Source: Christensenellaceae bacterium (GTDB lineage: Bacteria; Bacillota; Clostridia; Christensenellales; Borkfalkiaceae). Taken from it: DNA of 64,000 bases. The notes under the pieces were generated by a model. That model searched no databases. It had not been told where the DNA came from and worked only from the letters and a program-made list of their open reading frames with translations. The stretch covers positions 5,328-69,327 of the forward strand of contig JAZUAT010000007.1 in assembly GCA_045638105.1 (NCBI GenBank). The letters are read 5' to 3'. Within the stretch, counting starts at the first letter, position 1, and every line of letters starts with the position of its first letter. A program made the translations under genes and the position numbers. Of the stretch, positions 12,001 to 41,787 are shown in pieces.

Positions 12001-12265
12001 AGATGAACAAAAATCTCACGTGATTACAAGTGATAGCAAAATTAGTTTAGCAGTATTTATTCTTGATTATGGTGTAATGGGTGGCGATTCAAACGGTAGC
12101 CAAGCAATTTACGCGGCATATCAACAAGGCGGAATTATAGATGCAACGGAAATAAAAGGCATTGATACAACGCATCAATTTATAAATTTAAAAGTTTTTG
12201 CTGGGCAAGACATGCCATATGGCAATGCGCTTTTATACAACCTTAACTATGGTAAAACTGCATAA
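6029..12265 (+). CDS. Giant surface lipoprotein (2078 aa) with ~20 tandem Ig-like (Big_2-type) modules and a C-terminal beta-helix-like region. Putative adhesin or glycan-binding protein.
   Basis: Signal peptide plus lipobox (LSIATGLTAC|G). Reiterated modules carry the conserved 'DFKWE(I/V)VEG' and 'KVKA(V/T)CGG(K/Q)ESEVLEF(M/I)VGY' motifs. The C-terminal part (NAINIVGAVGNSVFENVYVHNCYQNGIQAKSS…) resembles right-handed parallel beta-helix / pectate-lyase-like repeats. Confidence 0.6.
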   Translation: MNSLKKVFLSLLLILSIATGLTACGMFETMDPDQGSGGGGQQPPSTPPTTITYTLNLIPNKSVALRGEVVTLNAYLHAEGKDDVLADGATYSIVDGASYATLAENKLTILNTANANSIVKVKAKVGATDSNVVEIKVSVPLESIVASANGVTNVLKGSSTVLHKETSPIGADLTDFKWEVIEGANLCSISGDVLVVNPNATVGSIIKVKAVCGGKESNVLEYIVGYPVTKVTASANEVTNILKGQSILLYKEIYPQEADKSDFKWEIVEGSNLCSINGDLLLVKPSAVTGSIIKVKATCGGQESEVLEFMVGYYVESVSASANGITNIKRGESVTLYKEILPKEADTDDFKWEVVEGAGLFTIAGDTLLVKANATVGAKIKVKAVCGGKESEALEFIVGYPVESITASANGVTNIIKGTNIPLSKQILPTNADIDDFKWEIVEGAGACFVNGDNLYVNATATTGTIIKVKAVCGGQESEVLEFMVGYYVESVTASASGVTNIKRGESITLYKEILPKEADTDDFKWEVVEGEGLFTITGDTLFVKSTATVGAKIKVKAVCGGKESEALEFIVGYPVESIKATAGGVTNIIKGTNIPLSKEILPTNADIDDFKWEIVEGAGACFVNGDNLHVNATATTGTIIKVKAVCGGKESEVLEFMVGYYVESVTASANGVTNILKGESVTLYKEILPKEADTDDFKWEILEGATICSINGDNLFVNSTAKTGDVIKVKATCGGQESDEFELIVGYPLKSISVEVGGSTNVPRGETRELTVTLDPVNTTEGDYKWEILEGADYCTIIDNVLTVSEFAPLDAEITFKAVGVKESSIITIVVTNAIESLSLTTSAPQILTHGANYPLQLVASPKDVSTKAVEWVVSNSDYAYVSNNTLYVYNNVPHGAELEVYAKSGNVESQKLEFNVGVALKELELELNGAVNVLNGKSITFTVTKNPADATNGEYEVVFVSGQDNCVLVGNTITIKDEATIGEKIIFKVVATNIAGIESGEVEIIVGIPVEEFTISLTAPAILTQGQYYPVEINVTPANATYKNVTWVVSKSAYAYVSNNLLFVRESVPHGATFKVSAIIDGKESSNSLIYQVGVAINSIAVSTNVKNVIQGQTATLTATINQGATEGYSWVITQGSEYASISNAMLFVNEGVETGTIIKVRAVSESGNVKSTELEFIVGIPLTALELERNGAVNVLNGNTITFAVTKKPANTTNGEYSVEFVSGQDYCVLSGNSITIKEDAPIGEEIIFKVVATNATGIESDTVKIIVGIPVVSLSISSTAPKILTHGASYPITLTTDPEDATYKNVEWFVSNKDYAYVSNNMLFVTNAIPHGATFDVYAKIGEKESNVLSYQVGVKINSITIETSATSVKKGNTASLTATLNDGATEGYNWVITQGNEYASISNNTLSVKEKAETGAIIKVKAVSASGEASSDEIEIVIAATDMEILENTYYLVLSFDYADLDKNGKTNPVLEAEVYNRLGTEIKDKNVIFELHNGSEAFVGIEKVGNSCRFTELKAHGTAYLNAKIEGLGVVETVELNVIVPPDVIYLPEVFAENPNFTYVYSMENPLNQEAEKLPFVAYAVTATACDDIVYSFTHEDGTTDNDVAIYNYETGTIEFLKTGLVTVTALSNSGSRIETKASYKFNINKGFNVYSFEHASQVTSNSGDYKNNKYNGEEINFVALEKIVGYNFENANYNYGYAFVPQVALKSQAEQRGNIDSYSENMTHDEKVAAYASLRNTMSSSNNRIIADTKNLHINGNQHAVDASNLYVPTDTEIERFRQIFGSDWFAHGGIISAEPYSLKKITGDVNSKVTFSVRIYDLEVIGNAPMSLANKEDASKTVWGVYLHGINVGDIDSGPNAKYYTELKNVTASAAKNAINIVGAVGNSVFENVYVHNCYQNGIQAKSSILTIKNFKIGACGATGIELVPDGSTKAGLNSDQKQTITFEGTIDAEGNIHATTTPYMIAYNDGAVPKIISASILFNQLTDEQKSHVITSDSKISLAVFILDYGVMGGDSNGSQAIYAAYQQGGIIDATEIKGIDTTHQFINLKVFAGQDMPYGNALLYNLNYGKTA
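6950..8290 (+). repeat. Near-identical 522-bp tandem duplication inside the giant lipoprotein gene. It has about 2.5 copies, and each copy spans two 87-aa Ig-like modules.
   Basis: Direct comparison of 6950-7472, 7472-7994 and 7994 onward shows >90% nucleotide identity (e.g. 'aaagttaaagcagtttgtggcggtcaagaaagtgaagttttagaatttatggttggttactacgttgaaagcgt' recurs). The spurious minus-strand ORFs 7225-7428 and 7747-7950 are offset by exactly 522 bp. Confidence 0.85.
8520..10340 (+). repeat. Second family of module repeats (A-B-A'-C-B'-A''-C' arrangement) with a ~780-bp higher-order nucleotide repeat
   Basis: Blocks starting 'SLSLTTSAPQILTHGANYP', 'LELELNGAVNVLNGKSITF' and 'INSIAVSTNVKNVIQGQTA' each recur 2-3 times with high DNA identity (e.g. 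8800-8940 vs 9590-9730). Confidence 0.7.
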
Positions 12266-14079: not shown

Positions 14080-17000
14080 ATGGGAAATTTTACAAGAAGA
14101 GTTATAGCCTTTATAATGGGCATGGTGGTAATGCTTGTAACGTTGCTTGGCGGTACTGCCGGCGCTATGTATTGGGCGTTTAAAAACCTTTCTTTATCAA
14201 AATTGGGGGTAATGGAAGAAGACGCGTCTGGTATAGCTGATGCCACTGTTGAAGATTTGGTTGCACTTGTTTTATTAGTTCAAAGTGACCCAGAATCTTT
14301 TACCTTTGCAAAACTTGAAGAACAAGGTATTGACGTTTTTCAAATTTTGGAATCTTTAGGGCTTGACTTGTCTAAAGCAGACAAAACAGATTATGATAGC
14401 TTAAAAAATATTAGTCCGTTCTTGCTTTTCTCTAGTGAGGGTTTATATCAAATAAGTTTTTCAACGGTATTTGCATTTATACCTAAGGGGGAAGACGGAA
14501 CGTATCCATTATTTTCTGAAGGTGCGAGAGACGCGCTTCGTGGATATTCGCTTGGCTATTTGTTGGAAACTGACAATATTACGGGAGAAATGCGTTTATT
14601 TAAAGAACTTAGCACTTTAAAAATCGGCTCGTTATTCCCTTCAACGTTTACTGAAACGTACGATTCTGTTAACGGCGAGTACGTTTACCTTGCAGATAAT
14701 CCTGCTATTGAAAAATTTGGTAACATTAAAGCTTCTTTCTTAACAAAAGCGGTTTCTGATACATACGTGTTTGATATTGGTCAAGAATTGCACGAGGGCG
14801 ACCTTGAAGAAATTGGCAAATTAGAAGTTGCAGATTTCTTATCTGATTTAATTGCCGGCGATGATGAAGATGCAAAAGCCCAAATTAAACAAACATTTGC
14901 GTTACTTGGCAATTTATTAGTAAAAGACTTGTTTGCGTATGATGAAGAATTGGGCTCTTATGCTTTTGATATGGAAGCAATATTCTCAACTTTATCAATA
15001 GGCGGATTCTTAGGTTACGTTGGTTGTACGGAAAGTGAAGATTGTCCAATTCACGAAGGCGTTGGTTGTGATGGCGAGTGGTACCTTGCTTGTATAGACG
15101 ACGTTGATTGCCCTGTACACGGTAACGACGGTTGCTTAAACGTAGACGAATATAAAAAGGTTGCAGGCGAAACTGCTGAAGAATTAATAATGTTAAACCT
15201 TGCTAACCTTAACATAAACAATATTATTGGTGGCGAGTTTGCAATAACTGATATTATTGAAGGCGTTTATCTTGGACACTCTCTTGGCTACAAAATTAAA
15301 GAAGACGCTCCTAACGGATATTGTGATAAAGATTGTGAAACTACTGAATTGCACGATGAACACAATTTCTATTGGGTAGATGCTAACGATGAATATGTTG
15401 GCGAACTTTTCAATGACGTTTCTAATACTCCACTTGTAAATGCTATTAATGGCGAGGGTATTGATTTAGAGGGCATTGTAAACGATGCAAAGCTCGGCGA
15501 ATTGCTTGGCAAATATAATAAAGACGGCGATTGGTACGATGATAGCGACTGCACAATTCCTACCGCTAATGAAACGGCAATGGAAAAAATATTGCTTTCT
15601 ATTTATGATAAAACGATGACGGAAATCACAAGTGACGGCGGTATTGATTTAGGCGTAATGCTTGAAGGCATCAAGATGGGCGAACTTATGGGCTACACTT
15701 ACGATAACGGCGTTTGGTACGATGGTAACGAAGCGTTAGACCTTAACGAATTGAACAAATCAATTTACGATATGGAAGTTTCTAAGCTCGTTAATGGCGA
15801 TATGGAATTTGATGACGTATTAGACGGCTTACTTCTTGGCGAACTTATGGGCTACACTTATGATAACGATAACGGCGTTTGGTATGACGGCAACGCTGTG
15901 TTAGACCTTAGCGAATTAGACAAGGCGTTATATGAAATTGACGTTGCAGATATTCTTAACGGCGATTTTGAAGTTAACGACGTGTTAGATGAAATGCTTC
16001 TTGGCGAACTTATGGGCTACACTTATGAAAGTGGCGTTTGGTACGACGGCACAGAGGCTTTAACTCTTAACGAATTAGATAAAGCGTTATACGAAGTTGC
16101 AGTTGCAGATATTCTTAACGGCGACTTTGAAGTTAACGACGTGTTAGACGGCTTACTTCTTGGCGAACTTATGGGTTACACAAACGATAACGGCGCTTGG
16201 TACGATGAAAATGATGCCTTATTAACTCTTAACGCATTTAACAAAGCATTATACAAAGTTGAAGTTTCAAAAATGCTTAACGGCGATATGGAAATCGGCG
16301 ATATTTTAGACGGGCTTAAGATGGGCGAACTTATGGGCTATGAAATTAAGGCTGAAGTCGGCTACTGCGACGCAGGCTGTGAACTTACTGAATCACACAA
16401 AGAACACAACTTCTATTGGGTTGATGAAAACGGCGCTTCTTTAAAGCTTAACGAGTTAGACAAAGCTTTATATAGAATGGAAGTTTCTAAAATAATTGAC
16501 GGCAACTTTGAAATAGGCGACATATTAAACGGACTTATGATGGGCGAACTTATGGGTTACACTTACGATAACGGCGTTTGGTATGATGAAGAAAATAGCG
16601 AAGTAACTCTCAACGCATTAGACAAAGCGCTTTATAAAGTAGACGTTTCAAAGATTGTTGACGGCAAATTTGTAGTTGACGATATTTTAGACGGGCTTAA
16701 GATGGGCGAACTTATGGGCTATACTTACGATAACGGCGCTTGGTACAAAGACGTAGAATGCAATACTAAAGTAGAAAATTCAACTGCTATGGATAAAATT
16801 ATGGTTAGCATCTACGGCAAAACTATGGATGACGTTAAAGCTGGGCTTAAGTTAGAAGAAATGCTTGACGGAATTATGCTTGGCGAACTTATGGGCTACA
16901 CCTTAGGCGAAAAAGACGGATATTGCAAAGCCGATTGCGACAGCGAAGAAGTAGGGCATAAACACGATTATTACTGGCTTAAAGACGGCGTAGAACAAAA

Positions 17001-18156
17001 CTTTACAAAGTTTGATAAAACTTTATATGAAACTTTAGTTTCCGAACTTGTTACTGGCGATAAAAACTTTAAGAGTGTTTTAGGCGACCTTTACGTTGGC
17101 GAACTTATGGGTAACACTTACGATAAAGATAACGGCGTTTGGTATAAAGAAAATGGCGAAGAGTTAGAACTTGGCATTTTAGATAAAACTATTTACGAAG
17201 TTCCTGTTACAGACATTTTAAATAACAAAGTTGACTTTAAGGACGTTTTAGGCGACCTTTACGTTGGTCAGCTAATGAACTATACTGGTGGCGTTGGTAC
17301 TTGGGAAAATAACGGCGTTCCTGTAAGCAATTTAAACAAAACGGTTGCAGATATTAAACTTGAAGAAATCTTTAGCGGAGAAATTAACTTTAAGTCAAAA
17401 ATTGATAACTTAACTTTAGGTGACGTTATTGATATGAATAGTGCTGACACTCCTACAATCTTAAAACTTTTAAAAGATACAAAAGTTAGCCAAATCTCTT
17501 CTAAGATGAACGAATTAGAACTTGGCGAAGTTATGGGCTATACAAAATGCTCTAAAGACGCAAGTTGTAAAGTTCACGAAAACGGCATTGGTTGTGACGG
17601 CAAGTGGTATAGAGAAAACAAAATTAAATGCTCGAAAGATGCAGATTGTGAAATTCACGAAAACGGCATTGGTTGTGACGGCGAGTGGTATATAGAAAAC
17701 AAATCTGTGGACGGTCTTAACGCAAAAATTGCGAACTACACGTTCAAGAAATTTGCAGACGAAGGCTTTAACCCAAACGAATTTACTTTAGGCGACGTTA
17801 TTAAAGATGATGATCAATACGAAGAAGGTTCTATATTCTATCTTTTAGACATTAGCGATATGGAAGATATTGATGGCGTTGCACCAGAACGTCAAGACAT
17901 TGAAAAGCGCAAGAGCATTTCTGTTAGCGAAGTTTCAACACGCACTAAATCAGGCGTACAAAATGCAAAATTAAAAGACTTAAAGAATTGTGGCGTGTTT
18001 ACTTTATCTATTGAAGATTGCGAAACACTTGACAAAGCGTTTATGTTTGGATACGACACATTGCATAAAATACCTGCGGATAAAGTAAATTGGCAAGAAC
18101 TTACTCTTAACGAATTTATTCAATGCGTTATAGCAATGCTCCCTACAGGTGTTTAA
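14080..18156 (+). CDS. Membrane-anchored, highly acidic repeat protein (1358 aa) with reiterated Cys/His-containing motifs. Function unknown.
   Basis: N-terminal TM helix (VIAFIMGMVVMLVTLLGGTAGAMYWAF). About 12 tandem ~53-aa repeats of the form 'LLGELMGYTYDNGVWYDG…LNELDKALYEV…ILNGDFEVNDVLDG'. Interspersed 'GYC(D/K)xxC(E/D)…H(D/K)EHNFYWVD' motifs occur four times, and 'CSKDAxC(K/E)(V/I)HENGIGCDG(K/E)WY' occurs twice, with a similar block near residue 300. Confidence 0.6.
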   Translation: MGNFTRRVIAFIMGMVVMLVTLLGGTAGAMYWAFKNLSLSKLGVMEEDASGIADATVEDLVALVLLVQSDPESFTFAKLEEQGIDVFQILESLGLDLSKADKTDYDSLKNISPFLLFSSEGLYQISFSTVFAFIPKGEDGTYPLFSEGARDALRGYSLGYLLETDNITGEMRLFKELSTLKIGSLFPSTFTETYDSVNGEYVYLADNPAIEKFGNIKASFLTKAVSDTYVFDIGQELHEGDLEEIGKLEVADFLSDLIAGDDEDAKAQIKQTFALLGNLLVKDLFAYDEELGSYAFDMEAIFSTLSIGGFLGYVGCTESEDCPIHEGVGCDGEWYLACIDDVDCPVHGNDGCLNVDEYKKVAGETAEELIMLNLANLNINNIIGGEFAITDIIEGVYLGHSLGYKIKEDAPNGYCDKDCETTELHDEHNFYWVDANDEYVGELFNDVSNTPLVNAINGEGIDLEGIVNDAKLGELLGKYNKDGDWYDDSDCTIPTANETAMEKILLSIYDKTMTEITSDGGIDLGVMLEGIKMGELMGYTYDNGVWYDGNEALDLNELNKSIYDMEVSKLVNGDMEFDDVLDGLLLGELMGYTYDNDNGVWYDGNAVLDLSELDKALYEIDVADILNGDFEVNDVLDEMLLGELMGYTYESGVWYDGTEALTLNELDKALYEVAVADILNGDFEVNDVLDGLLLGELMGYTNDNGAWYDENDALLTLNAFNKALYKVEVSKMLNGDMEIGDILDGLKMGELMGYEIKAEVGYCDAGCELTESHKEHNFYWVDENGASLKLNELDKALYRMEVSKIIDGNFEIGDILNGLMMGELMGYTYDNGVWYDEENSEVTLNALDKALYKVDVSKIVDGKFVVDDILDGLKMGELMGYTYDNGAWYKDVECNTKVENSTAMDKIMVSIYGKTMDDVKAGLKLEEMLDGIMLGELMGYTLGEKDGYCKADCDSEEVGHKHDYYWLKDGVEQNFTKFDKTLYETLVSELVTGDKNFKSVLGDLYVGELMGNTYDKDNGVWYKENGEELELGILDKTIYEVPVTDILNNKVDFKDVLGDLYVGQLMNYTGGVGTWENNGVPVSNLNKTVADIKLEEIFSGEINFKSKIDNLTLGDVIDMNSADTPTILKLLKDTKVSQISSKMNELELGEVMGYTKCSKDASCKVHENGIGCDGKWYRENKIKCSKDADCEIHENGIGCDGEWYIENKSVDGLNAKIANYTFKKFADEGFNPNEFTLGDVIKDDDQYEEGSIFYLLDISDMEDIDGVAPERQDIEKRKSISVSEVSTRTKSGVQNAKLKDLKNCGVFTLSIEDCETLDKAFMFGYDTLHKIPADKVNWQELTLNEFIQCVIAMLPTGV
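15650..17300 (+). repeat. ~159-bp (53-aa) tandem coding repeats inside the acidic repeat protein gene
   Basis: 'cttggcgaacttatgggctacacttacga' recurs at ~15678, 15838, 15997, 16160, 16540, 16710, and further on. Confidence 0.8.
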
Positions 18157-21585: not shown

Positions 21586-22224
21586 TTAAGGCTTGTTGTT
21601 TTCAACGTACTCTTTAAGCGAAAGTCCGTTTAAAAAACGTGCGTCTTCTTTTATAATATCAATATTGCTACCGCCGTAAATCGCTTTAAAAGCGTTTGCT
21701 AAATAGTCTGGGCGGAGCGTGTCGTTACCAAATTTAAGCGTTGCAATAAGATTTTCATTTTCAAAATTTAGAGAAACTATTTTATTGCAAACTTCTCTTT
21801 TATTGCCTTTTTTGTCTTCAACGTAGAATTCTTGCTTTGATAAAACTTCACTAACGTCAAAGTAGTTTAAACCGCTAATAACGTAAGTGGCGGTTGTAAC
21901 GTCTGAAGCAACGCCAAGCCTTTTTTGAGTGTTATAACTTTCTTCACACTTAATTCCGTCAGGAGCAAAGTTGTTAAAAAGTTGTTTAAAAGTTTCGGCG
22001 TTCTCATCGCTTTCAATTAGGCAATATTCACTTTTACTTTTTAATCCAAGTGCAATAGGCGAACTCATAAAAACAAGCATATGTGGGTTAAATCCTTGCG
22101 AATAGCCTACTTTTACGTTCATACGCCTTATAATTTTTGCAAAATGTTTAAGCATATCAAGGTGCGGAATAAATTCGGCGCCGTTTAATTTTGAATATTT
22201 AATAACTATCATTTTATATCGCAC
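21586..22224 (-). CDS. TIGR03936/DUF2344-family protein, a partner of the TIGR03960 radical SAM protein
   Basis: '…EFIPHLDMLKHFAKIIRRMNV…' is typical of the DUF2344 family. It overlaps the upstream radical-SAM gene by 16 nt. Confidence 0.6.
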   Translation of the reverse strand: MRYKMIVIKYSKLNGAEFIPHLDMLKHFAKIIRRMNVKVGYSQGFNPHMLVFMSSPIALGLKSKSEYCLIESDENAETFKQLFNNFAPDGIKCEESYNTQKRLGVASDVTTATYVISGLNYFDVSEVLSKQEFYVEDKKGNKREVCNKIVSLNFENENLIATLKFGNDTLRPDYLANAFKAIYGGSNIDIIKEDARFLNGLSLKEYVENNKP

Positions 22225-23975
22225 CTACCTTGTAAACCACAGCCTTTACAGCCCGTTTGGCATCCGCCCGTAATTTTTCCGTCGTATGCTTTTTGCCTTT
22301 CTTTAAGTAAAAAGTTTTTAGTAACGCCAACGTCAATAAAATCCCAAGGGAGCGGAGTATTTAAGTCTTGCTCGCTCGTGTAGTCAAGTTTATTAACGCC
22401 TTCTTCTAAAAACGCTTGCTCGTAAATTTTAGGATTAAAATATTCGCACCAACTTTCAAAGAAAGAGCCTTTTTTGTATGCGTTAAGCAAAACTTTGCCA
22501 ATGCGCCTGTCGCCACGGGCTAAAACTGCTTCCATTTCTGAAAGTTCGTAATCATTCCAATTAAAAGAAACGCCTTTAATATAAAGTTTTGATTTTAGCG
22601 TTGCAATTTTTTTGTCAACCTGCTCTTTTGTTGCAAAAGGCTCCCACTCAAAAGGCGTAAACGGCTTTGGAATAAAAGTTGAAACGCTAACGTTTATTCT
22701 TAATGCACGCAAACGCTTAGGGTTTTGCGAATATATTTGTTTTATTTTTTGAACAACTTGGAAGATGCCGTCAATATCTTCGTCTGTTTCCGTAGGCAAG
22801 CCCATCATAAAATAAAGCTTTATTGCAGACGTTCCAAGGTCAAACGCTTTTTGAACTCCCGTTTCAATATCTTGTTCCGTAATATCTTTATTAATAACGT
22901 CACGCAAGCGTTGAGTACCGGCTTCGGGCGCAAACGTTAAACTGCTTTTGCGTGATTCTTGTGCGTAAAAACTTTCAAAACTATCAATTCTAAGTGAAGG
23001 AAGAGCAATGGTAGTGTACTCAGGCAACTTTGCCTTCATTTCTTTTAAAAGAGTAGAAAGTTCGCCGTAGTCACTTGTTGACAAGCTATTCATACTAACG
23101 TTTTCATAGCCCGTGTTTTTAATAAGGTCGCACGCAAGGCTTGTTAACGTATTAACGCTACGCTTTCTAACGGGTCTATATATAAATCCCGCTTGGCAAA
23201 ATCTACAACCGCGATAGCATCCGCGCATAATTTCAATAACGGCTCTATCGTGTACAACTTCAATATTTCCAACGGGTTGAAAACGTGGATATGGCGCGTT
23301 TTCAAGGTCTAAGCAAATGGCTCTTTTAACGCTATTGCCTTCAAATTTAACAATTTTTCCGTTCTCATATACGGGTTTTGTAAGGGTAGGAACGTAAACG
23401 CCCTCAATTTCACTCGCGCGTTTTAAGAACTCTTTTTTGTCTTTAACTTTAAGTTTAAGCTCGGCAAGTTGGCGCATTGAAATTTCGCCGTCCCCAATTA
23501 CAAAAAGGTCAAAAAAGTCAGCAAGAGGTTCTGGGTTAACTGCGCAAGGTCCACCGCCTTGAATAATAGGGAAAGAATCGTCACGCTCGCTTGCCAAAAG
23601 TGGAATGCCAGCTAAATCAAGCATATACAAAATGGTTGTATAACTCATTTCGTATTGAAGCGAAAAGCCTATCATATCAAATTCTTTAAGCGGTTTTTTT
23701 AAGCCGAGCGAGTAAAGCGGAATGCCGTTTTCTTTAATCGCCGTACCAAAGTCTGGCCAAGGGGCGTAGCACCTGTCTGCTGAAGCGCCGTCAACGTTAT
23801 TAATAACGTCTTGCACAATGCGTATGCCTAAGTTGCTCATTGCAACTTCGTAAACGTCAGGAAAGCAAATGCAGTAGTTGAATTTGTCTTCTTTTATTTT
23901 AGGTGCGCCGTATTCGCCACCAATGTAGCGCGCGGGCTTTTCAACCGTTTTTAAAATTTCGTTTAAAGTTTTCAT
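22209..23975 (-). CDS. TIGR03960-family B12-binding-domain radical SAM protein of unknown function
   Basis: N-terminal 'KPARYIGGEYG'. The CxxxCxxC radical-SAM motif appears as 'GCYRGCRFCQAG'. 588 aa. Confidence 0.7.
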   Translation of the reverse strand: MKTLNEILKTVEKPARYIGGEYGAPKIKEDKFNYCICFPDVYEVAMSNLGIRIVQDVINNVDGASADRCYAPWPDFGTAIKENGIPLYSLGLKKPLKEFDMIGFSLQYEMSYTTILYMLDLAGIPLLASERDDSFPIIQGGGPCAVNPEPLADFFDLFVIGDGEISMRQLAELKLKVKDKKEFLKRASEIEGVYVPTLTKPVYENGKIVKFEGNSVKRAICLDLENAPYPRFQPVGNIEVVHDRAVIEIMRGCYRGCRFCQAGFIYRPVRKRSVNTLTSLACDLIKNTGYENVSMNSLSTSDYGELSTLLKEMKAKLPEYTTIALPSLRIDSFESFYAQESRKSSLTFAPEAGTQRLRDVINKDITEQDIETGVQKAFDLGTSAIKLYFMMGLPTETDEDIDGIFQVVQKIKQIYSQNPKRLRALRINVSVSTFIPKPFTPFEWEPFATKEQVDKKIATLKSKLYIKGVSFNWNDYELSEMEAVLARGDRRIGKVLLNAYKKGSFFESWCEYFNPKIYEQAFLEEGVNKLDYTSEQDLNTPLPWDFIDVGVTKNFLLKERQKAYDGKITGGCQTGCKGCGLQGRCDIK

Positions 23976-24164
23976 TGTTATCCTTATAAATAAGCTGGTT
24001 ATATACTTATAGCCAAAAACGTTTACTACATTTTAGCATATTATAAAAAAAATTGCAATTTGTTAACAAACTATTAGCGATTTTATTGGTTGTAGGTTGG
24101 ATATTAAAAATTGCAAAAAGATAAAATAAAAGCAAATAACGCCTTTAAAAGACTTGCTAACCTT

Positions 24165-24193
24165 AAAAAAATATTGTATAATTTTTGTAAGTT
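24165..24193 (+). promoter_or_regulatory. Promoter (TTGCTA, 17-nt spacer, TGnTATAAT) for the leader plus acyl-CoA ligase
   Basis: ttgcta at 24165-24170, and an extended -10 'tgtataat' at 24186-24193. Confidence 0.5.
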
Positions 24194-24199
24194 GAATAT

Positions 24200-24440
24200 T
24201 AAAGACGTTTTAGCAAATTTTTAGTATGTTAGCATTAGTTTATTTAGAGAGTTGCCGTTAGGTGCAAGGCAATTAAACCGCGTAGCAGAATTACGTTTTT
24301 GCAAGTTGCTTTTTAGCCGTTTGGGCGCGTTATAGCCCGTAGTGTTTTCACTCATAAGGCTCTATTAGAGCGAACAGAGGTGGTACCGCGATATATTCGC
24401 CCTCTTGCTTTTTACAAAGCAAGAAGGCTTTTTTTATTTT
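24200..24440 (+). promoter_or_regulatory. Candidate T-box riboswitch leader, comprising Stem I elements, the T-box sequence and a terminator
   Basis: 'aGGTGGTACCGCG' at 24377-24389 matches 12 of 12 positions of the T-box core GGUGGNACCGCG. Upstream 'AGAGAG' sits next to a hairpin (ttgcc-GUUAGGUGCAA-ggcaa) resembling the Stem I AG-bulge and distal loop. 'AGUA' and 'GAAUUACG' are specifier-loop-like. Terminator: gccctcttgcttt…aaagcaagaaggc followed by ttttttt at 24398-24434. Confidence 0.5.
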
Positions 24441-24458
24441 ACTTAACGGAGATGTTTT

Positions 24459-26093
24459 ATGCCTATAACCGATTTATTAACAAGAAACGCCGCTTTTTAT
24501 TCGGGAGAAGTGTGTTTAGTTGAAATTAACCCTAAACTTGAAGAAGGCAAGCTTATGACTTGGCGTGAATTTTCACTTATTCAAGCCACTTCAACGGAGG
24601 CTTTTCGTAGAGAACTTACTTGGGGCGAATTTCAAAAAAGTTCTAACCGCTTTGCTAACCTTTTACTTTCAAGGGGCGTAAAGAAAGGGGAAAAGGTTGC
24701 CATTTTACTTATGAACTGCTTAGAGTGGTTGCCTATTTATTTTGGCATTTTAAAAGCTGGTGCAGTTGCTGTTCCGCTCAACTTTAGATACACGGGCGAA
24801 GAAATTGCTTATTGTTTAGACAAAGCGGACTGCGAACATATTGTTTTCGGCCCTGAATTTGTGGGAAGAATTGAAGGCATTTGCTATAAGGCAAGGAGAA
24901 TTAAAACTTGGCTTTACGTTGGCGAAGATTGTCCTGTTTTTGCCGAAAGTTACGATAGGCTTGTTAACTTTTGTAGTTCTAAACTTCCAGCAATTCAAAT
25001 TAGCGATGAAGATGATGGCGCAATTTATTTCTCTTCCGGTACAACGGGTTTTCCAAAAGCAATACTTCACAAACACAAAAGCCTAGTTCACTCTGCTACC
25101 GTTGAGCAAAAGCACCACGAGCAAACAAAGGACGATACGTTCTTATGTATTCCGCCACTTTACCATACAGGTGCAAAGATGCACTGGTTCGGCTCTTTAA
25201 TGGCGGGCTCTAAAGCGGTACTTTTAAAGGGTACTGAGCCAAAGTGGATTATTAAAGCCGTTGCGGAAGAAAAATGCTCTATAGTATGGCTTTTAGTGCC
25301 TTGGGCGCAAGATATTTTAGACGCTATTGATAGGGGCGAAATAAATATAAATGATTACGACCTTTCAAAATGGCGCTTAATGCATATAGGTGCACAACCC
25401 GTTCCTCCAAGTTTAATTAAGCGTTGGCTTAAAATATTTCCACATCATAAATACGACACGAATTACGGCTTATCGGAATCTATCGGTCCAGGTTGCGTGC
25501 ATTTAGGTATGGAAAACGTTAATAAGGTTGGTGCAATAGGTAAAGCGGGCTACGGCTGGCAAACAATGATTGTTGACGAAAACCGCAATCCTGTTAAAAA
25601 GGGCGAAGTTGGCGAACTTGCAGTTTTTGGCGACGGCGTTATGAAATGCTACTATAAAGATGAAGAAGCCACAAAGGAAATTTTAAAAGACGGTTGGCTC
25701 TTTACCGGCGATATGGCTATGGAAGATGAAGACGGCTTCATTTATTTAGTAGATAGAAAGAAAGACGTTATAATTTCAGGCGGGGAAAATATTTATCCCG
25801 TTCAAATTGAAAACTTTATTAGAAAACACGATGCGGTTAGTGACGTTGCAGTTATCGGCATACCAGACAAGCGTTTGGGCGAAGCCACTTTAGCCGTTAT
25901 TCAACTTAAAGACGGAGTTACTTTAACCGAAGAAGATATTAATGATTATTGTTTAGAACTTCCAAGATACAAAAGACCTAAAAAAGTTATTTTTGCTCTC
26001 GTTCCAAGAAACCCTACGGGCAAAATTGAAAAGCCAAAACTTAGAAAGCAATATGGTAGCGATGGTTTAGTATCAAGGCAAAACGAATTGTAA
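24459..26093 (+). CDS. AMP-dependent acyl-CoA synthetase/ligase (fatty-acid-CoA ligase family)
   Basis: AMP-binding motif 'YFSSGTTGFPKAIL'. Also 'DTNYGLSE' and 'TGDMAMEDEDGFIYLVDRKKD' adenylate-forming motifs. 544 aa. Confidence 0.8.
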   Translation: MPITDLLTRNAAFYSGEVCLVEINPKLEEGKLMTWREFSLIQATSTEAFRRELTWGEFQKSSNRFANLLLSRGVKKGEKVAILLMNCLEWLPIYFGILKAGAVAVPLNFRYTGEEIAYCLDKADCEHIVFGPEFVGRIEGICYKARRIKTWLYVGEDCPVFAESYDRLVNFCSSKLPAIQISDEDDGAIYFSSGTTGFPKAILHKHKSLVHSATVEQKHHEQTKDDTFLCIPPLYHTGAKMHWFGSLMAGSKAVLLKGTEPKWIIKAVAEEKCSIVWLLVPWAQDILDAIDRGEININDYDLSKWRLMHIGAQPVPPSLIKRWLKIFPHHKYDTNYGLSESIGPGCVHLGMENVNKVGAIGKAGYGWQTMIVDENRNPVKKGEVGELAVFGDGVMKCYYKDEEATKEILKDGWLFTGDMAMEDEDGFIYLVDRKKDVIISGGENIYPVQIENFIRKHDAVSDVAVIGIPDKRLGEATLAVIQLKDGVTLTEEDINDYCLELPRYKRPKKVIFALVPRNPTGKIEKPKLRKQYGSDGLVSRQNEL

Positions 26094-26275
26094 TAAGGCT
26101 TTGCCACTTTAAAAACTTGATTTTTTGGCGAAAAGCAATTATATTCCTTATATTTTTCTAACCAACCGCAAAACAAAGTTTTGCTAAAATCAACTATTTT
26201 CACGGTCAAAACCAAAAGGCAAAAAATTTAGCAAAACAATAAAAACATCAAATCACTAATATTACGGAGAAAATT

Positions 26276-28012
26276 ATGAAAAAACTTATGCTTGGCAACG
26301 CGGCAGTTGCCCAAGGTGCTTATGAAGCGGGCGTTAAAGTTGTATCTTCTTACCCTGGCACTCCAAGCACGGAAATAACTGAAAATATTGTTAAATACGA
26401 TAGCGTTTACGTTGAGTGGGCACCAAATGAAAAAGTTGCTTGCGAAACTGCAATAGGAGCGTCTATTGCGGGCGCGCGCGCAATGACTTGTATGAAGCAC
26501 GTTGGCTTAAACGTTATGGCGGACCCCGTTTTTACGGTTAGTTACATTGGTGCAAACGGCGGTTTAGTTTTATGCGTAGCAGATGACCCTGGAATGCACT
26601 CTTCACAAAACGAGCAAGATTCAAGGCACTATGCAAAGGCTTCTAAAATTCCTATGTTAGAGCCGTCTAATTCAAGCGAGTGTAAAGAATTTACAAAATT
26701 TGCTTTTGAATTAAGTGAAAAGTATGATACGCCTGTATTTATAAGGCTATCAACAAGAGTTTCACACTCGCAAAGTTTGGTTGAAGAAGCTGAGCCAATC
26801 TCCGCTCCGTTAAAGCCTTATGAAAAGAATATTCAAAAGAACGTAATGATGCCTGCAAACGCAATAAATAGGCACGTTGTTGTTGAAAAGCGTGAACAAG
26901 ACTTAAGAGAATTTGCAGAAAATACTTTTCTTAACGTGGTAGAAAACAACGGCGCTAAAATTGGCGTAATAACTTCTGGCGTTGCGTATGAGTACGCAAA
27001 AGAAGCGCTTGGAAATAAAGCCAACTACCTTAAATTAGGTATGGTTTATCCGCTTCCAACACGACTTATTGAAAATTTTGTTAAAGGGTTAGATGAAGTT
27101 TATATTATTGAAGAATTAGACCCGTTCATTGAAGAGCACGTTAAAGCACTTGGCGTTCCCGTTAAAGGTAAAGACGTGTTTAGTTTGCTTGGCGAATATA
27201 GCCAAAGTTTAATTAAGAAAGTAGTTTTAAATGAAGAAGTTAAAAATTTAACAACTCAAATGGAACTTCCTAAACGTCCACCCGTTATGTGTGCAGGTTG
27301 CCCACATAGGGGAACTTTCTACGTTCTTAATAAACTTAAAGTGACTGTTAGTGGCGATATTGGTTGCTATACTTTAGGAGCAGTTGCACCGCTTTCAAGC
27401 GTAGATACAACAATTTGCATGGGCGCGTCAATTAGTGCGGCGCATGGCATGGTTAAGGCAAGGGGCGAAGATTTTTCTAAAAAATTAGTTGCCGTTATTG
27501 GCGATTCTACTTTTATACACTCTGGCATAACTGGGCTTATAGACGTGGTTTATAACAAAAATAACAACACAATCATCATTTTAGATAACTCTATAACGGG
27601 TATGACTGGGCATCAAGAAAACCCAACTACAGGCTTAACTATTAGAAACGAGCCTACAAAAGTTGTTGACTTAGTTGCACTTTGCAAGGCTGTTGGCGTT
27701 GAAAGAGTTAGGGTTGAAGACCCGTTTGACGTTAAAGGTTTTGAACAAGCCGTTAAGGAAGAATTAAACGCTAACGAGCCTTCAGTTATTATTGCACGTC
27801 GTCCTTGCGCTTTACTTAAAGGCGTTAAGTATGACGGGAAGTATACTGTTAACGAAGAAAAGTGCCGTTCTTGCAAAATGTGTATGAAACTTGGTTGCCC
27901 TGCAATCACTTACGTTAACGGCAAGGCAAAAATTGATGCAACACAATGCAATGGTTGCGGGCTTTGCGCAAACGTTTGTCCGTTTGGTGCTATTGAAAAG
28001 GAGGCTAAATAA
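26276..28012 (+). CDS. iorA: Indolepyruvate:ferredoxin oxidoreductase alpha subunit (TPP-dependent OFOR with a C-terminal 2x[4Fe-4S] domain)
   Basis: N-terminus 'MKKLMLGNAAVAQGAYEAGVKVVSSYPGTPSTEI' is classic IorA. The C-terminal segment 'CRSCKMCMKLGCP…CNGCGLCANVCP' is ferredoxin-like. Confidence 0.8.
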   Translation: MKKLMLGNAAVAQGAYEAGVKVVSSYPGTPSTEITENIVKYDSVYVEWAPNEKVACETAIGASIAGARAMTCMKHVGLNVMADPVFTVSYIGANGGLVLCVADDPGMHSSQNEQDSRHYAKASKIPMLEPSNSSECKEFTKFAFELSEKYDTPVFIRLSTRVSHSQSLVEEAEPISAPLKPYEKNIQKNVMMPANAINRHVVVEKREQDLREFAENTFLNVVENNGAKIGVITSGVAYEYAKEALGNKANYLKLGMVYPLPTRLIENFVKGLDEVYIIEELDPFIEEHVKALGVPVKGKDVFSLLGEYSQSLIKKVVLNEEVKNLTTQMELPKRPPVMCAGCPHRGTFYVLNKLKVTVSGDIGCYTLGAVAPLSSVDTTICMGASISAAHGMVKARGEDFSKKLVAVIGDSTFIHSGITGLIDVVYNKNNNTIIILDNSITGMTGHQENPTTGLTIRNEPTKVVDLVALCKAVGVERVRVEDPFDVKGFEQAVKEELNANEPSVIIARRPCALLKGVKYDGKYTVNEEKCRSCKMCMKLGCPAITYVNGKAKIDATQCNGCGLCANVCPFGAIEKEAK

Positions 28013-28584
28013 TGAATACTAACGTAATGATAGTAGGCGTAGGAGGTCAAGGAACTTTACTTGCAAGTAGGATACTTGGGGGCGTTGCTATTAAATGTGG
28101 CTACGACGTAAAAGTTTCGGAAGTTCACGGAATGAGCCAACGTGGTGGAAGCGTTGTTACGTACGTTAAATACGGAGAAGTTGTTTCTTCGCCAATAATT
28201 GATAAAGGCGAAGCAGACGTTATTTTGGCTTTTGAAAAATTAGAAGCAATAAGAGCATTGCCATTTTTAAAGATAGGTGGAAAAATTATTTTAAATGATA
28301 GAGAGATTGCACCAATGCCTGTTATTACGGGGGCTTGTCAATATCCACAAGGTATTGTTGAAGAACTTTCTTCAAAAGCAAACGTTACTTCACTTGACGC
28401 TCTTGAGTTAAGTGTTAAAGCCGGCTCTATTAAAACTGTAAACGTTGTTTTAATTGGTGTTTTGGCAAAAACAATGAATATTGAAAAACAAGTTTGGTTA
28501 GACGTTATAAGCGAAACTGTTCCGCCAAAATTTTTAGAACTTAATTTAAAAGCGTTTGAACTTGGCTACACTTACGGGGAATAA
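28012..28584 (+). CDS. iorB: Indolepyruvate oxidoreductase beta subunit
   Basis: 190 aa; 'NVMIVGVGGQGTLLASRILG' is the OFOR gamma-like fold typical of IorB. Its start overlaps the iorA stop codon. Confidence 0.75.
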   Translation: MNTNVMIVGVGGQGTLLASRILGGVAIKCGYDVKVSEVHGMSQRGGSVVTYVKYGEVVSSPIIDKGEADVILAFEKLEAIRALPFLKIGGKIILNDREIAPMPVITGACQYPQGIVEELSSKANVTSLDALELSVKAGSIKTVNVVLIGVLAKTMNIEKQVWLDVISETVPPKFLELNLKAFELGYTYGE

Positions 28585-30572: not shown

Positions 30573-31016
30573 ATGATAGTTGAACAAATTTCTGTTTTTA
30601 TTGAAAATAAAGAAGGTAGACTTTTAGAAGTTGCGGAAGTTCTAGCAAAAAACAATATAGACATTTCCGCCCTTTCGCTTGCAGATACGGAAGAATACGG
30701 CGTTCTTCGTATGATTGTTAGTGACCCTTATAAAGCAAAAGCAGTTCTTTTAGAAACAGGTGTTATTTGTAAGGTTACAGACGTTTTAGCCGTTTCTATT
30801 AGCGATGAGCCGGGTGGATTTGCAACGTCTTTAAAAAGCATTACCGATAACGGAATTTTTATTAAATATATGTACGCTTGCGTTTCTCATAAAAAGGGCA
30901 AAGCGCTTATGGTTTTGTCTGTATCGGACTTACAAAAGGCTGAAGAAATAATCAAGAAAAATATGGGAGATATTGAAAACCCAAACGAAATATATCGCTT
31001 AGAAAAAAAACAATAG
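30573..31016 (+). CDS. ACT-domain protein, commonly paired with PaaK-like ligases
   Basis: 147 aa with two small ACT-like halves (…ISVFIENKEGRLLEVAEVLAKNNIDISALSL…). Confidence 0.55.
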   Translation: MIVEQISVFIENKEGRLLEVAEVLAKNNIDISALSLADTEEYGVLRMIVSDPYKAKAVLLETGVICKVTDVLAVSISDEPGGFATSLKSITDNGIFIKYMYACVSHKKGKALMVLSVSDLQKAEEIIKKNMGDIENPNEIYRLEKKQ

Positions 31017-31087
31017 AGCAAGGCACTTTTAAATAAAGGCGTTTACTACTTGTTAATATATAAATTTTATATTTTACTTGACATAGG

Positions 31088-31116
31088 CGTTAAATATATA
31101 TATAATAATGTTAATT
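31088..31116 (+). promoter_or_regulatory. Consensus promoter (TTGACA, 17-nt spacer, TATAAT) for the zinc-ribbon/SPFH pair
   Basis: ttgaca at 31088-31093, 17-nt spacer, tataat at 31111-31116. Confidence 0.5.
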
Positions 31117-31304: not shown

Positions 31305-32696
31305 ATGGCAACAAAATTAAACAAAAAAACAAAAGAAGATTTATTGCAAGATTTATTGTGCGATAGAGTAAATATTAACGATTTATCTTTGATGTATGAA
31401 AATCAAAGATATGCGTTTTTTACTGCAATTGAAGAACGTCCAAACATTTTATCAAAAGTTGCAGTAGCAAACGCAAACAATCTTCTTGTTCCCGCAATTG
31501 AAAAAGACCCTGTAAACTTCATTTATTTAAAGAAAGAGCAATATACAGATGAAACTGCTCAAATATATTTAGCATACAGGTTAAGCCTTAACAAAGAAGG
31601 TTGTGATAATTTTGAGGGTTCAGAAACCGTACAAAATAAAGACAACGGCTTTTCATTACATAAAAGCGTTGATGATAAAGTAGTGCTTAACTACAACTAT
31701 ATGACGCCAAACGGTGAAGAAATTTATTATTTTGATAACGAGTTGCAAATTCCTATTTCAATCAAAACGAACTTCAAAATTTCTCTTAAAATTAAGAGTG
31801 CTGCAACTTTTATTGAAAAATTTGATATGCACGCTTCACAACTTGGTAGAAATAAAATTGAAAACGTTGTTGGTAGCGTTTTAGAAAACCAATTCCGTGC
31901 TATTTTTACTAGTTATATTGACAGGAATAAAATTGGCTACTATACGTTATGTGCTACTATTAGCATTTTTGAAAATGAGCTTCAAAATAAACTTAAGGCA
32001 GTATTTGCACCATACGGCATTGAAGTTTCAAACGTTTTAATTAGCAAATTTGCAATTCCAAATAGTATTCAAGAAAGAATTGAGGACCAAGCATTTGAAC
32101 TTCGCCAAATCAAGGCGGAAATGTATGTAAATCACGACCTTGCAAAAAAATCTCTTGAAAACTACGAAATTAAACTTGCTATTGAAAATAGATATCCAGA
32201 TGCAGAGCGTTCTTTAACTGAATATGAAAAAGATATGGCGTTAAAGAGATATATGCTTAAGAACGGCCAAATTTCTAAAGAAAGCATTGACCGCACAATC
32301 TTTATGAAGCGCAAAGTTGAACAAGCGGATAAGATTATTGAAAAAGAACAAGATGGCGTTATGTATTTCCCTCAATCTAAAAATAGCTTTAAGAGAGGGT
32401 ACTTTGGCTGGCTTATTATTTGCCTTATTCTTAACGGATTACTTGCACTTTATAATGTTGAATATGCACTCTTATTTGCAGCGTTCAACGTTCTACTTTT
32501 TGGCTTAATAGCATTGTTTGGCGGAAAGAAGTTCAAAAGCCCAAAGCCTAAGTTCAAAACGAAAGTAGATAGGGAAAAAGAAAAGGCTCAAGAAAAGGAA
32601 AAAGAAGCTCTTGCTTTAGCCCAAGCAGAACCTCAACAAACTGAACCTAAAGTAGAAGCACCTCAAGAAGAAGTAGCTACTACTAAAGATGAATAA
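31305..32696 (+). CDS. SPFH/band-7-like domain protein with a C-terminal TM helix and a Lys/Glu-rich tail
   Basis: 'YGIEVSNVLISKFAIPNSIQERIEDQA' resembles the SPFH core. TM helix 'GWLIICLILNGLLALYNVEYALLFAAFNVLLFGLIALFG', then a KPKFKTKVDREKEKAQEKEKE tail. Confidence 0.4.
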   Translation: MATKLNKKTKEDLLQDLLCDRVNINDLSLMYENQRYAFFTAIEERPNILSKVAVANANNLLVPAIEKDPVNFIYLKKEQYTDETAQIYLAYRLSLNKEGCDNFEGSETVQNKDNGFSLHKSVDDKVVLNYNYMTPNGEEIYYFDNELQIPISIKTNFKISLKIKSAATFIEKFDMHASQLGRNKIENVVGSVLENQFRAIFTSYIDRNKIGYYTLCATISIFENELQNKLKAVFAPYGIEVSNVLISKFAIPNSIQERIEDQAFELRQIKAEMYVNHDLAKKSLENYEIKLAIENRYPDAERSLTEYEKDMALKRYMLKNGQISKESIDRTIFMKRKVEQADKIIEKEQDGVMYFPQSKNSFKRGYFGWLIICLILNGLLALYNVEYALLFAAFNVLLFGLIALFGGKKFKSPKPKFKTKVDREKEKAQEKEKEALALAQAEPQQTEPKVEAPQEEVATTKDE

Positions 32697-40911: not shown

Positions 40912-40914
40912 AAA

Positions 40915-41787
40915 ATGATTTTTGCAATTAAGAGATTTGAAACGCACGATGGTGATGGAATTAGAACAACCGTATTTTTTAAAGGTTGCCCTTTAAGGTG
41001 CGTGTGGTGCCACAATCCCGAATCGTTTAGCTTCAAAAAAGAAATGGCGTTTAACCCTGAACTTTGCGTTAACTGCTTAAGGTGTACTACTTTATGTACG
41101 GCAAATCAAGTGGAAAACGGCAAGCATATTTTTAAAAGGGAAAATTGTGTAAAGTGCGGTAAGTGCTTAGAAGTTTGCCCGTCACGTGTTTTTACGCTTT
41201 ACGGCGAGGAGCGTACCGCAAAAGATATAGCTACGGAAGTACTGCGTGACAAAATGTTTTTTGACGGGTCAGGTGGCGGTGTAACGCTATCTGGCGGAGA
41301 GCCTTTAATGCAACAAGACTTATGTTACGAACTTGCAAAACTTTTAAAAGAAAACGGAGTTAACGTAGCAATAGACACGTGCGGTTACGTTGAAAAAAGC
41401 GTAATAGAGAAAATTTTGCCGTACGTTGATACGTTTTTATATGATATAAAAGCAATAGATCCTCTTGTTCATAAAAAGTGTACAGGCGTTACAAACGAAG
41501 TAATTTTAGAAAATTTAAAATTTATAGACGATGCGGGTAAAAAGATAGAAATTAGAATTCCTTTTGTTCCAAATTTTAATGACGGCGAAATTTTAAAAAT
41601 GGCAAATTTTATAAAAGATTTAAAAAACATTGAAAAAGTTCGCGTTTTGGCGTATCATAAATATGCGGAAATGAAATATATTTCTCTTGGAATTTTAGAC
41701 AATTCGCCAAGTGAACTTCCAACAAAAGAGCAATTAGAAAACGCGCGTAAAACTATAAAAGACGTTACGGGTTTTGAAGTTTTATAA
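40915..41787 (+). CDS. Glycyl-radical-enzyme activating protein (radical SAM plus ferredoxin-like clusters)
   Basis: 'GCPLRCVWCHNPE' carries the CxxxCxxC motif. Two extra Cys clusters: 'CVNCLRCTTLC' and 'CVKCGKCLEVCP'. 290 aa. Confidence 0.85.
   Translation: MIFAIKRFETHDGDGIRTTVFFKGCPLRCVWCHNPESFSFKKEMAFNPELCVNCLRCTTLCTANQVENGKHIFKRENCVKCGKCLEVCPSRVFTLYGEERTAKDIATEVLRDKMFFDGSGGGVTLSGGEPLMQQDLCYELAKLLKENGVNVAIDTCGYVEKSVIEKILPYVDTFLYDIKAIDPLVHKKCTGVTNEVILENLKFIDDAGKKIEIRIPFVPNFNDGEILKMANFIKDLKNIEKVRVLAYHKYAEMKYISLGILDNSPSELPTKEQLENARKTIKDVTGFEVL

Follow-up and report, generated by a model that had tools for sequence, protein, structure and literature searches.

Tyrosine-specific T-box riboswitches of the tyrS type (RF00230; Bacillus subtilis tyrS) present UAC followed by a purine in an S-turn specifier loop and combine it with an AG-bulge/distal-loop platform, a Stem IIA/B pseudoknot, Stem III, a seven-nucleotide bulge carrying UGGU, and a mutually exclusive antiterminator and terminator. 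Their described targets are tyrS, NhaC-type transporters, the tyrosine biosynthesis operon of the B. cereus group, aro genes and phenylalanine hydroxylase (Wels 2008). Here, we describe a leader RNA in a 64,000-nucleotide stretch of a Christensenellaceae contig (JAZUAT010000007.1; hereafter the window) that carries these elements and is almost certainly a T-box riboswitch specific for tRNA-Tyr. Unlike the targets compiled by Wels 2008, the genes behind it form an operon of AMP-forming ligases and indolepyruvate:ferredoxin oxidoreductase (IOR, subunits IorA and IorB). We consider it likely that this class-I Tyr T-box switches on an arylacetate-salvage operon for tyrosine supply.

The sub-clade to which the window belongs differs from tyrS-type leaders in its short, plain Stem II, a degenerate K-turn and a specifier loop that is 2–3 nt longer. 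T-boxes of the glyQS type also have no full Stem II with S-turn while keeping the same Stem I platform and switch, and the window leader resembles these minimal T-boxes in this respect. In contrast to glyQS leaders, which have no IIA/B pseudoknot and read GGC, it keeps a covarying pseudoknot and reads UAC.

The operon is similar to the T-box-controlled transporter and biosynthesis operons in that starvation for a single amino acid would induce supply genes (Wels 2008; RegPrecise 2013). It differs from them in its proposed source of supply: a fermentation end product would be salvaged by reductive carboxylation, in place of de novo synthesis or amino-acid import. The route that we propose from sequence, from arylacetate via arylacetyl-CoA and, by IOR, arylpyruvate to the amino acid, resembles the aryl-acid route of M. 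maripaludis and rumen anaerobes. Formation of aromatic amino acids from aryl acids via IOR in M. maripaludis is credited to Porat et al. (cited in PMC4162585), and formation of phenylalanine from phenylacetate in rumen anaerobes to Allison 1965 (listed in PMC7356843). Unlike that route, the locus described here is a clostridial operon with a dedicated, uncharacterised 544-aa ligase and a transporter under predicted tRNA-Tyr control.

Results

A permissive scan of positions 24000–24560 with the covariance model RF00230 matched the forward strand at 24199–24407 over the full model (86.3 bits, E = 2.3e-19, model positions 1–219 of 219). An earlier note on this DNA had called a T-box here and had made the call depend on an Infernal match and on an antiterminator in which the 5' half of the terminator is tied up. 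The match is highly significant, and the antiterminator, formed by the helices AGAGG 24376–80/CCUCU 24401–05 and GCG 24388–90/CGC 24398–400, cannot coexist with the terminator because nucleotides 24399–24405 belong to both. The calculated stabilities are −6.7 kcal/mol for the antiterminator and −16.2 kcal/mol for the terminator, whose stem (24399–24428) is followed by a U-tract, as the earlier note had described. An equivalent terminator overlap and U-tract are found in the orthologous leaders whose slice extends that far. Control is transcriptional, since the ribosome-binding site GGAGA (24448–52) lies outside the T-box structures and is not sequestered. The RNA mechanism is canonical, class-I and transcription-attenuating, with minor structural idiosyncrasies.

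The 12-nt T-box core was correctly recognised in the earlier note, though one position off: GGTGGTACCGCG lies at 24379–24390, or at 24378–24390 with the preceding "a", rather than at 24377–24389. By itself this core is weak evidence, as 21 of 100 shuffled versions of the window contain at least one match with at most one mismatch, and the unconstrained minimum-free-energy fold of the whole leader is uninformative (z = −1.5). Judged by the model match, in contrast, the leader as a whole is far beyond chance as a T-box. Further elements that had been named are present: the AGAGAG bulge (24246–24251), the distal hairpin (24251–24273) with its loop GUUAGGUGCAA (24257–24267), and the specifier-loop-like AGUA (24223–24226) and GAA-UUACG (24288–24295). 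The promoter TTGCTA-17-TATAAT agrees with the consensus at 10 of 12 positions, and both hexamers are kept in four orthologous leaders (L081, L083, L084, L001). An extended −10 of the TGn type, also claimed, was not found; the sequence upstream of the hexamer reads TTGTATAAT.

Homologs of the first operon gene, an AMP-forming ligase, number thousands and are found, with 74–90% identity, in uncultured Clostridia from gut and rumen. Taking one genome per species, we surveyed 80 ligase loci (numbered with the prefix L). The T-box core stands 74–157 nt upstream of the ligase start in ten of them, and an nhmmer profile built from these ten leaders retrieved 11 further homologous leaders located 1.6–2.8 kb upstream of the ligase, so that a Tyr T-box is linked to the ligase in 21 of the 80 genome loci. 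Thirteen orthologous leaders score above the Rfam gathering score for RF00230 of 93 bits (98.9–126.4 bits). Additional T-box-like cores in L002, L003, L043, L050, L054 and L065 were dismissed as they fall below the gathering score, and the T-boxes of L070 (asnS/asnA) and of the minus strand of L048 (alaS) served as controls only.

For a test of the structure, 22 leaders were aligned and the structure derived from the window was transferred onto the alignment. The proposed partners are paired in 86.4% of cells, versus 40–48% when partners are slid by 1–3 columns. Compensatory changes were seen at 33 of the 42 base pairs, and no shuffle out of 500 reached the observed values. The signal extends along the leader, including the helix closing the distal loop (helix 5; 96% paired, 5/6 pairs compensatory), the IIB helix of the pseudoknot (helix 7; 100%, 4/4) and Stem III (helix 8; 94%, 4/5). 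The distal-loop motif GGUG..A is invariant across the alignment, and the T-box bulge contains UGGU in all leaders (24381–84 in the window).

The window lacks the upper Stem II with S-turn that L001 and more distant orthologs carry. This part is also missing from the closest relatives (L081, L083 and L084; 88–89% ligase identity), in which the short Stem II hairpins differ in sequence, yet each is self-complementary. This covariation argues for a maintained feature of the sub-clade rather than decay. Inspected by eye, the K-turn position (24207–13/24302–04) reads UAG/AAG in the window versus the UGA/GAG consensus; L001 has a canonical K-turn (GAG/GAG), and the motif varies within the window's sub-clade. 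The score of the window leader below the gathering score is explained by these two traits, the short Stem II without S-turn, to which the deficit maps, and the degenerate K-turn.

The specifier region of the window reads GAA-U-UAC-G. UAC is the only triplet invariant across the 22 leaders; the sequence GAA(A)-UAC-A, found in 17 of the 22, contains neither AUU nor UUA. The reading frame was calibrated with the AsnRS/AsnA control of L070, whose GAA-U-AAC-A aligns to GAA-a-uuc-a of the model, placing AAC on "uuc"; the window UAC occupies the same RF00230 columns. On this comparison the specifier is UAC (Tyr) at 24292–24294, and the earlier suggestion of AUU (Ile) or UUA (Leu) is not supported. 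In TBDB, UAC makes up 99% of Tyr specifiers and UUA 1% of Leu specifiers (PMC7778990). The earlier note had also expected a discriminator A from the U opposite to it in the bulge, and this is what we found in a relative: in L026, a genome with the Tyr T-box operon, the product of a tRNA-Tyr(GUA) gene ends in ...UUCCCCC-A-CCA (A73), and its anticodon and ACCA end are complementary to UAC and to UGGU. This gene (L026:15984–16068, anticodon GTA in the DNA) is separated from the operon upstream of it by about 1.6 kb, and another tRNA is encoded next to it at 15880–15951.

The operon behind the leader (Table 1) begins with the 544-aa ligase. The label of a fatty-acid-CoA-ligase-type gene given in the earlier note does not hold, as the protein reaches no fatty-acid ligase family cutoff and is identifiable only as a member of the AMP-binding superfamily. 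It scores below every NCBIfam cutoff (best NF004837, 416 versus a cutoff of 476, others far lower), and its nearest solved structures, all of distant similarity, are FadD13, FadD5 and feruloyl-CoA and 4-coumarate-CoA ligases. IorA and IorB both reach equivalog-level matches, and IOR is flanked in the operon by two AMP-forming ligases. The order LIG-IorA-IorB-(membrane protein)-PaaK-ACT is kept in about 40 of the 80 loci, where LIG denotes the ligase and PaaK a phenylacetate-CoA ligase-like protein. In 11 loci this Tyr T-box stands ahead of SSF-(Amidohydro_2)-LIG-IorAB, whereas L024 and L048 have nothing but LIG-SSF behind it. SSF, a sodium:solute symporter of the relatives, is nearest to PutP and PanF and lies below all equivalog cutoffs.

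Table 1. The T-box leader and its operon in the window, from 5' to 3' (window coordinates)
Feature	Position	Strand	Details
Sigma-70-type promoter	24154–24182	+	−35 TTGCTA 24154–24159, 17-nt spacer, −10 TATAAT 24177–24182; 10/12
T-box leader, Stem I to antiterminator	24199–24407	+	RF00230 match
Stem I	24205–24306	+	Base helices 24205–06/24305–06 and 24213–17/24298–24302; helices 1–5 covary
Specifier-loop S-turn, 5' half, AGUA	24223–24226	+	Invariant in 22 leaders
AG bulge AGAGAG, part of tRNA-elbow platform	24246–24251	+	AGAGA invariant in 22 leaders
Stem I distal loop GUUAGGUGCAA	24257–24267	+	Closing helix 24251–56/24268–73
Specifier loop, 3' side GAAUUACG	24288–24295	+	GAA 24288–90, spacer U, UAC 24292–24294, purine G24295
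Short Stem II hairpin GCU-UUUU-AGC (10 nt)	24308–24317	+	Gap at alignment columns 136–187
Stem IIA/B pseudoknot	24318–24338	+	IIA 24318–20/24327–29; IIB GGGC 24323–26/GCCC 24335–38; F-box CGUUA 24328–32
Stem III and conserved AA	24359–24374	+	Helix 24359–63/24367–71; AA 24373–74 invariant
Antiterminator	24376–24405	+	7-nt T-box bulge UGGUACC 24381–87, invariant; helices 9–10
Intrinsic terminator	24399–24435	+	Stem 24399–24428 (12 pairs, one C.A mismatch), then U7 24429–35
Ribosome-binding site GGAGA	24448–24452	+	7 nt 5' of ATG; conserved in relatives' leaders
AMP-forming acyl-CoA ligase, 544 aa, first operon gene	24459–26093	+	PF00501, PF13193
Ligase-iorA spacer, 182 nt	26094–26275	+	Unique to the window; 12–30 nt in typical relatives
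IorA, indolepyruvate (arylpyruvate):ferredoxin oxidoreductase alpha subunit	26276–28012	+	TIGR03336, 755 bits versus cutoff 651
IorB, IOR beta subunit	28012–28584	+	NF005325, 281 bits versus cutoff 230
Multi-pass membrane protein, about 222 aa	28586–29254	+	Hydropathy; no Pfam/NCBIfam family
PaaK-like phenylacetate-CoA ligase, 434 aa	29255–30559	+	TIGR02155, 533 bits, below equivalog cutoff 646; PF14535
ACT-domain-pair protein, 147 aa, last operon gene	30573–31016	+	PF19571 ACT_8
Promoter of next transcription unit, TTGACA-17-TATAAT	31078–31106	+	Perfect 12/12 sigma-70 consensus

No SSF or Amidohydro_2 homolog was found in the window. The membrane-protein gene, called at 221–224 aa in L081, L083 and L084, occurs among the 80 loci only in those lacking the SSF symporter, which suggests that its product possibly serves as an alternative transporter in place of SSF. 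In the spacer between the ligase gene and iorA, no second leader, terminator, repeat or Rfam family was found; the gaps of 12–30 nt seen elsewhere include relatives with 88–90% identical ligases. Neither the PDB nor NCBIfam allowed a substrate to be assigned to the ligase, SSF or the amidohydrolase. The last of these (PF04909, about 263 aa) is encoded between symporter and ligase in some Tyr-T-box operons (L062:7208–7999, L058:2935–3726, L051:7184–7999); it matched nothing in NCBIfam and nothing of use in the PDB. Among ten other window proteins scanned, a sample of the larger open reading frames (ORFs), no aminotransferase or aro gene was found. Ligase orthologs of 68–71% identity, without a T-box, also occur in metagenome-assembled genomes (MAGs) labelled Lentisphaerae, Victivallales or Thermoguttaceae (L014, L020, L021, L031, L035, L069, L071) and could reflect horizontal transfer or mis-binning.

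Elsewhere in the window, a radical-SAM protein (PF19864 and PF04055, 588 aa) overlapping a DUF2344 protein is encoded divergently, directly upstream of the T-box promoter (21586–23975, minus strand), and the promoter at 31078–31106 precedes an SPFH/Band-7 gene (31305–32696). Further features are a PFL-like glycyl-radical enzyme of 730 aa with, behind it, a 290-aa ORF for a possible activating enzyme (38719–41787), a candidate anti-phage defence gene whose product has a Shedu SduA C-terminal domain (61754–62812, minus strand), and two very large plus-strand ORFs (6029–12265, 2078 aa; 14080–18156, 1358 aa).

Discussion

T-boxes induce their targets on uncharged tRNA (TBDB, PMC7778990), and the operon is therefore most likely anabolic and raises tyrosine supply. 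AMP-forming ligases drive the conversion of an acid to its thioester, and IOR links arylpyruvates and arylacetyl-CoA in either direction. From the T-box logic and the two ligases of this type that flank IOR, we infer that IorAB runs in the reductive (carboxylating) direction in vivo. We propose the following hypothetical sequence of events, in which (i) transcription would start a few bases 3' of the −10 hexamer (24177–24182) and, by default, the terminator with its U7 tract (24399–24435) would form and end transcription ahead of the ligase gene; (ii) when tyrosine is scarce, uncharged tRNA-Tyr(GUA) would bind, its anticodon pairing with UAC 24292–24294 in Stem I, its elbow stacking on the AG-bulge/distal-loop platform and its free 3' end ACCA pairing with UGGU 24381–24384 in the bulge; (iii) the tRNA would thereby stabilise the weaker antiterminator (24376–24405), which consumes the terminator's 5' arm, and RNA polymerase would read through into the genes for the acyl-CoA ligase, IorA, IorB, the small membrane protein, the PaaK-like ligase and the ACT protein; (iv) 4-hydroxyphenylacetate would be taken up, by the SSF symporter in the relatives and in the window perhaps by the 222-aa membrane protein, and be converted to its CoA thioester by the 544-aa AMP-forming ligase, a predicted 4-hydroxyphenylacetate-CoA ligase; (v) IOR, with reduced ferredoxin, would carboxylate the thioester to 4-hydroxyphenylpyruvate, which an aminotransferase encoded elsewhere would convert to tyrosine. 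We lean towards this arylacetate-salvage reading of the operon, for which the IOR direction, the substrates of ligase and transporter, and a transcript that runs on through the 182-nt spacer are presumed.

Several observations weigh against the proposed Tyr T-box and its salvage operon. The 64-kb window contains no tRNA-Tyr gene, only one for tRNA-Gln, and the pairing was checked in a relative only. The leader scores 86.3 bits, less than the gathering score of 93, and is absent from a default Rfam scan of the whole window; the Stem II S-turn is lacking and the K-turn motif is degenerate. The specifier loop is 2–3 nt longer than canonical, with two extra U after UACG, and a purely positional rule such as that of TBDB (2–4 nt from the bulge's 3' end) would read CGU, a misreading that is avoided if two U.U oppositions are counted as helix. 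About three quarters of the ortholog loci have no T-box. The 182-nt spacer holds two weak promoter-like sites, which makes T-box control of iorAB and paaK less certain in the window than in its relatives. Finally, we found no characterised close homolog of the ligase, SSF or the membrane protein, and 4-hydroxyphenylacetate is a predicted substrate.

Some of these observations could also be taken to mean that the leader is a decaying relic which no longer switches after loss of the Stem II S-turn and K-turn, as its score below threshold, the missing upper Stem II and the UAG/AAG at the K-turn position might suggest. Against this, the promoter, specifier, platform motifs, pseudoknot, Stem III with its AA, T-box bulge and terminator are all intact, the differing but self-complementary Stem II hairpins of L081, L083 and L084 point to selection, and natural glyQS-type T-boxes work without Stem II; we therefore regard decay as quite improbable. 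A Leu (UUA) or Ile (AUU) specifier in a functional T-box would instead connect the operon to branched-chain metabolism, for instance to leucine formation from isovalerate by reductive carboxylation. The GAA-UUA-C of the window does fit a naive GAA-NNN rule, and tRNA-Leu and tRNA-Ile also carry discriminator A. The isovalerate reaction itself is known in rumen bacteria (PMC7356843). However, UUA and AUU are limited to the close group of the window while UAC alone persists throughout the alignment, the AsnRS-calibrated columns give UAC, UUA is used by only about 1% of Leu T-boxes, and the downstream oxidoreductase matches the IOR equivalog and not VOR. The leader comparison thus appears to have largely refuted this explanation, to which we assign an extremely low probability.

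With a genuine Tyr T-box, the pathway might still be other than 4-hydroxyphenylacetate salvage: SSF or the membrane protein could, for example, import tyrosine, with the ligase and IOR acting on another substrate or serving another need. SSF is nearest to PutP-type amino-acid symporters, although below equivalog cutoffs, and could carry tyrosine itself, which likewise counts against salvage, and transporters of amino acids belong to the classic targets of T-boxes (Wels 2008). In addition, the ligase has no characterised close relative and the Amidohydro_2 protein of some operons has no explained role in a simple salvage scheme. Yet the ligase is always part of the Tyr-T-box unit and tightly linked to IorAB; minimal T-box-SSF-LIG-IorAB units without PaaK (L005, L011, L012) encode exactly transport, activation and carboxylation; and transporter and ligase genes are adjacent, in either order, in about 35 loci, which fits acid uptake and activation. 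Such a different pathway seems unlikely to us. The operon might also be catabolic, IOR oxidising arylpyruvate to arylacetyl-CoA in aromatic amino-acid fermentation. IOR is best known in this oxidative direction. Moreover, iorAB genes are present in B. fragilis, a phenylacetate producer (PMC11304471). A T-box, however, is on when tRNA-Tyr is uncharged, a state in which tyrosine breakdown would be counter-productive, and the two ATP-consuming AMP-forming ligases flanking IOR are not accompanied in the operon by an ATP-conserving thioester-cleaving enzyme. A catabolic role is therefore very improbable.

Genes for IOR, PaaK or acyl-CoA ligases are not mentioned as T-box targets in Wels 2008, in the RegPrecise survey with supplements and in the TBDB paper (PMC7778990). 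We also found no literature joining T-boxes with indolepyruvate, CoA ligase or phenylacetate-CoA ligase in a comparison that stops short of the TBDB tables and some key reviews, so that an earlier listing is possible. The arylacetate/IOR pathway appears to be undescribed as a T-box target. The target was rightly termed atypical in that the accessible T-box surveys list none like it, but it is not a lone fatty-acid ligase: because the ligase heads an IorAB/PaaK operon that is plausible as an amino-acid-supplying pathway, the usual T-box logic is kept. As a practical lesson, the default Rfam threshold misses this leader, and a positional specifier rule would mis-assign its UAC.

In summary, T-box specifiers are a dependable guide to the function of neighbouring genes, and here an invariant Tyr specifier connects tyrosine supply with an unannotated family of acyl-CoA ligases, with a sodium:solute symporter and with the common iorAB-paaK-ACT cluster. 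We incline, if only slightly, to the view that this Tyr T-box marks a bacterial route to tyrosine that is widespread in Clostridia of gut and rumen but has so far gone unrecognised, comprising import of 4-hydroxyphenylacetate by an SSS-family symporter or the 222-aa protein, a new family of arylacetate-CoA ligases and carboxylation by IOR. If this is true, it would provide the first regulatory evidence of bacterial IorAB clusters running anabolically and functions for three uncharacterised protein families. It would also bear on IOR genes in microbiome studies, where they are usually read as arylacetate producers. The carriers of this system would regain tyrosine from 4-hydroxyphenylacetate, an abundant product of its fermentation, with consequences for cross-feeding and for MAG-based predictions of amino-acid auxotrophy.

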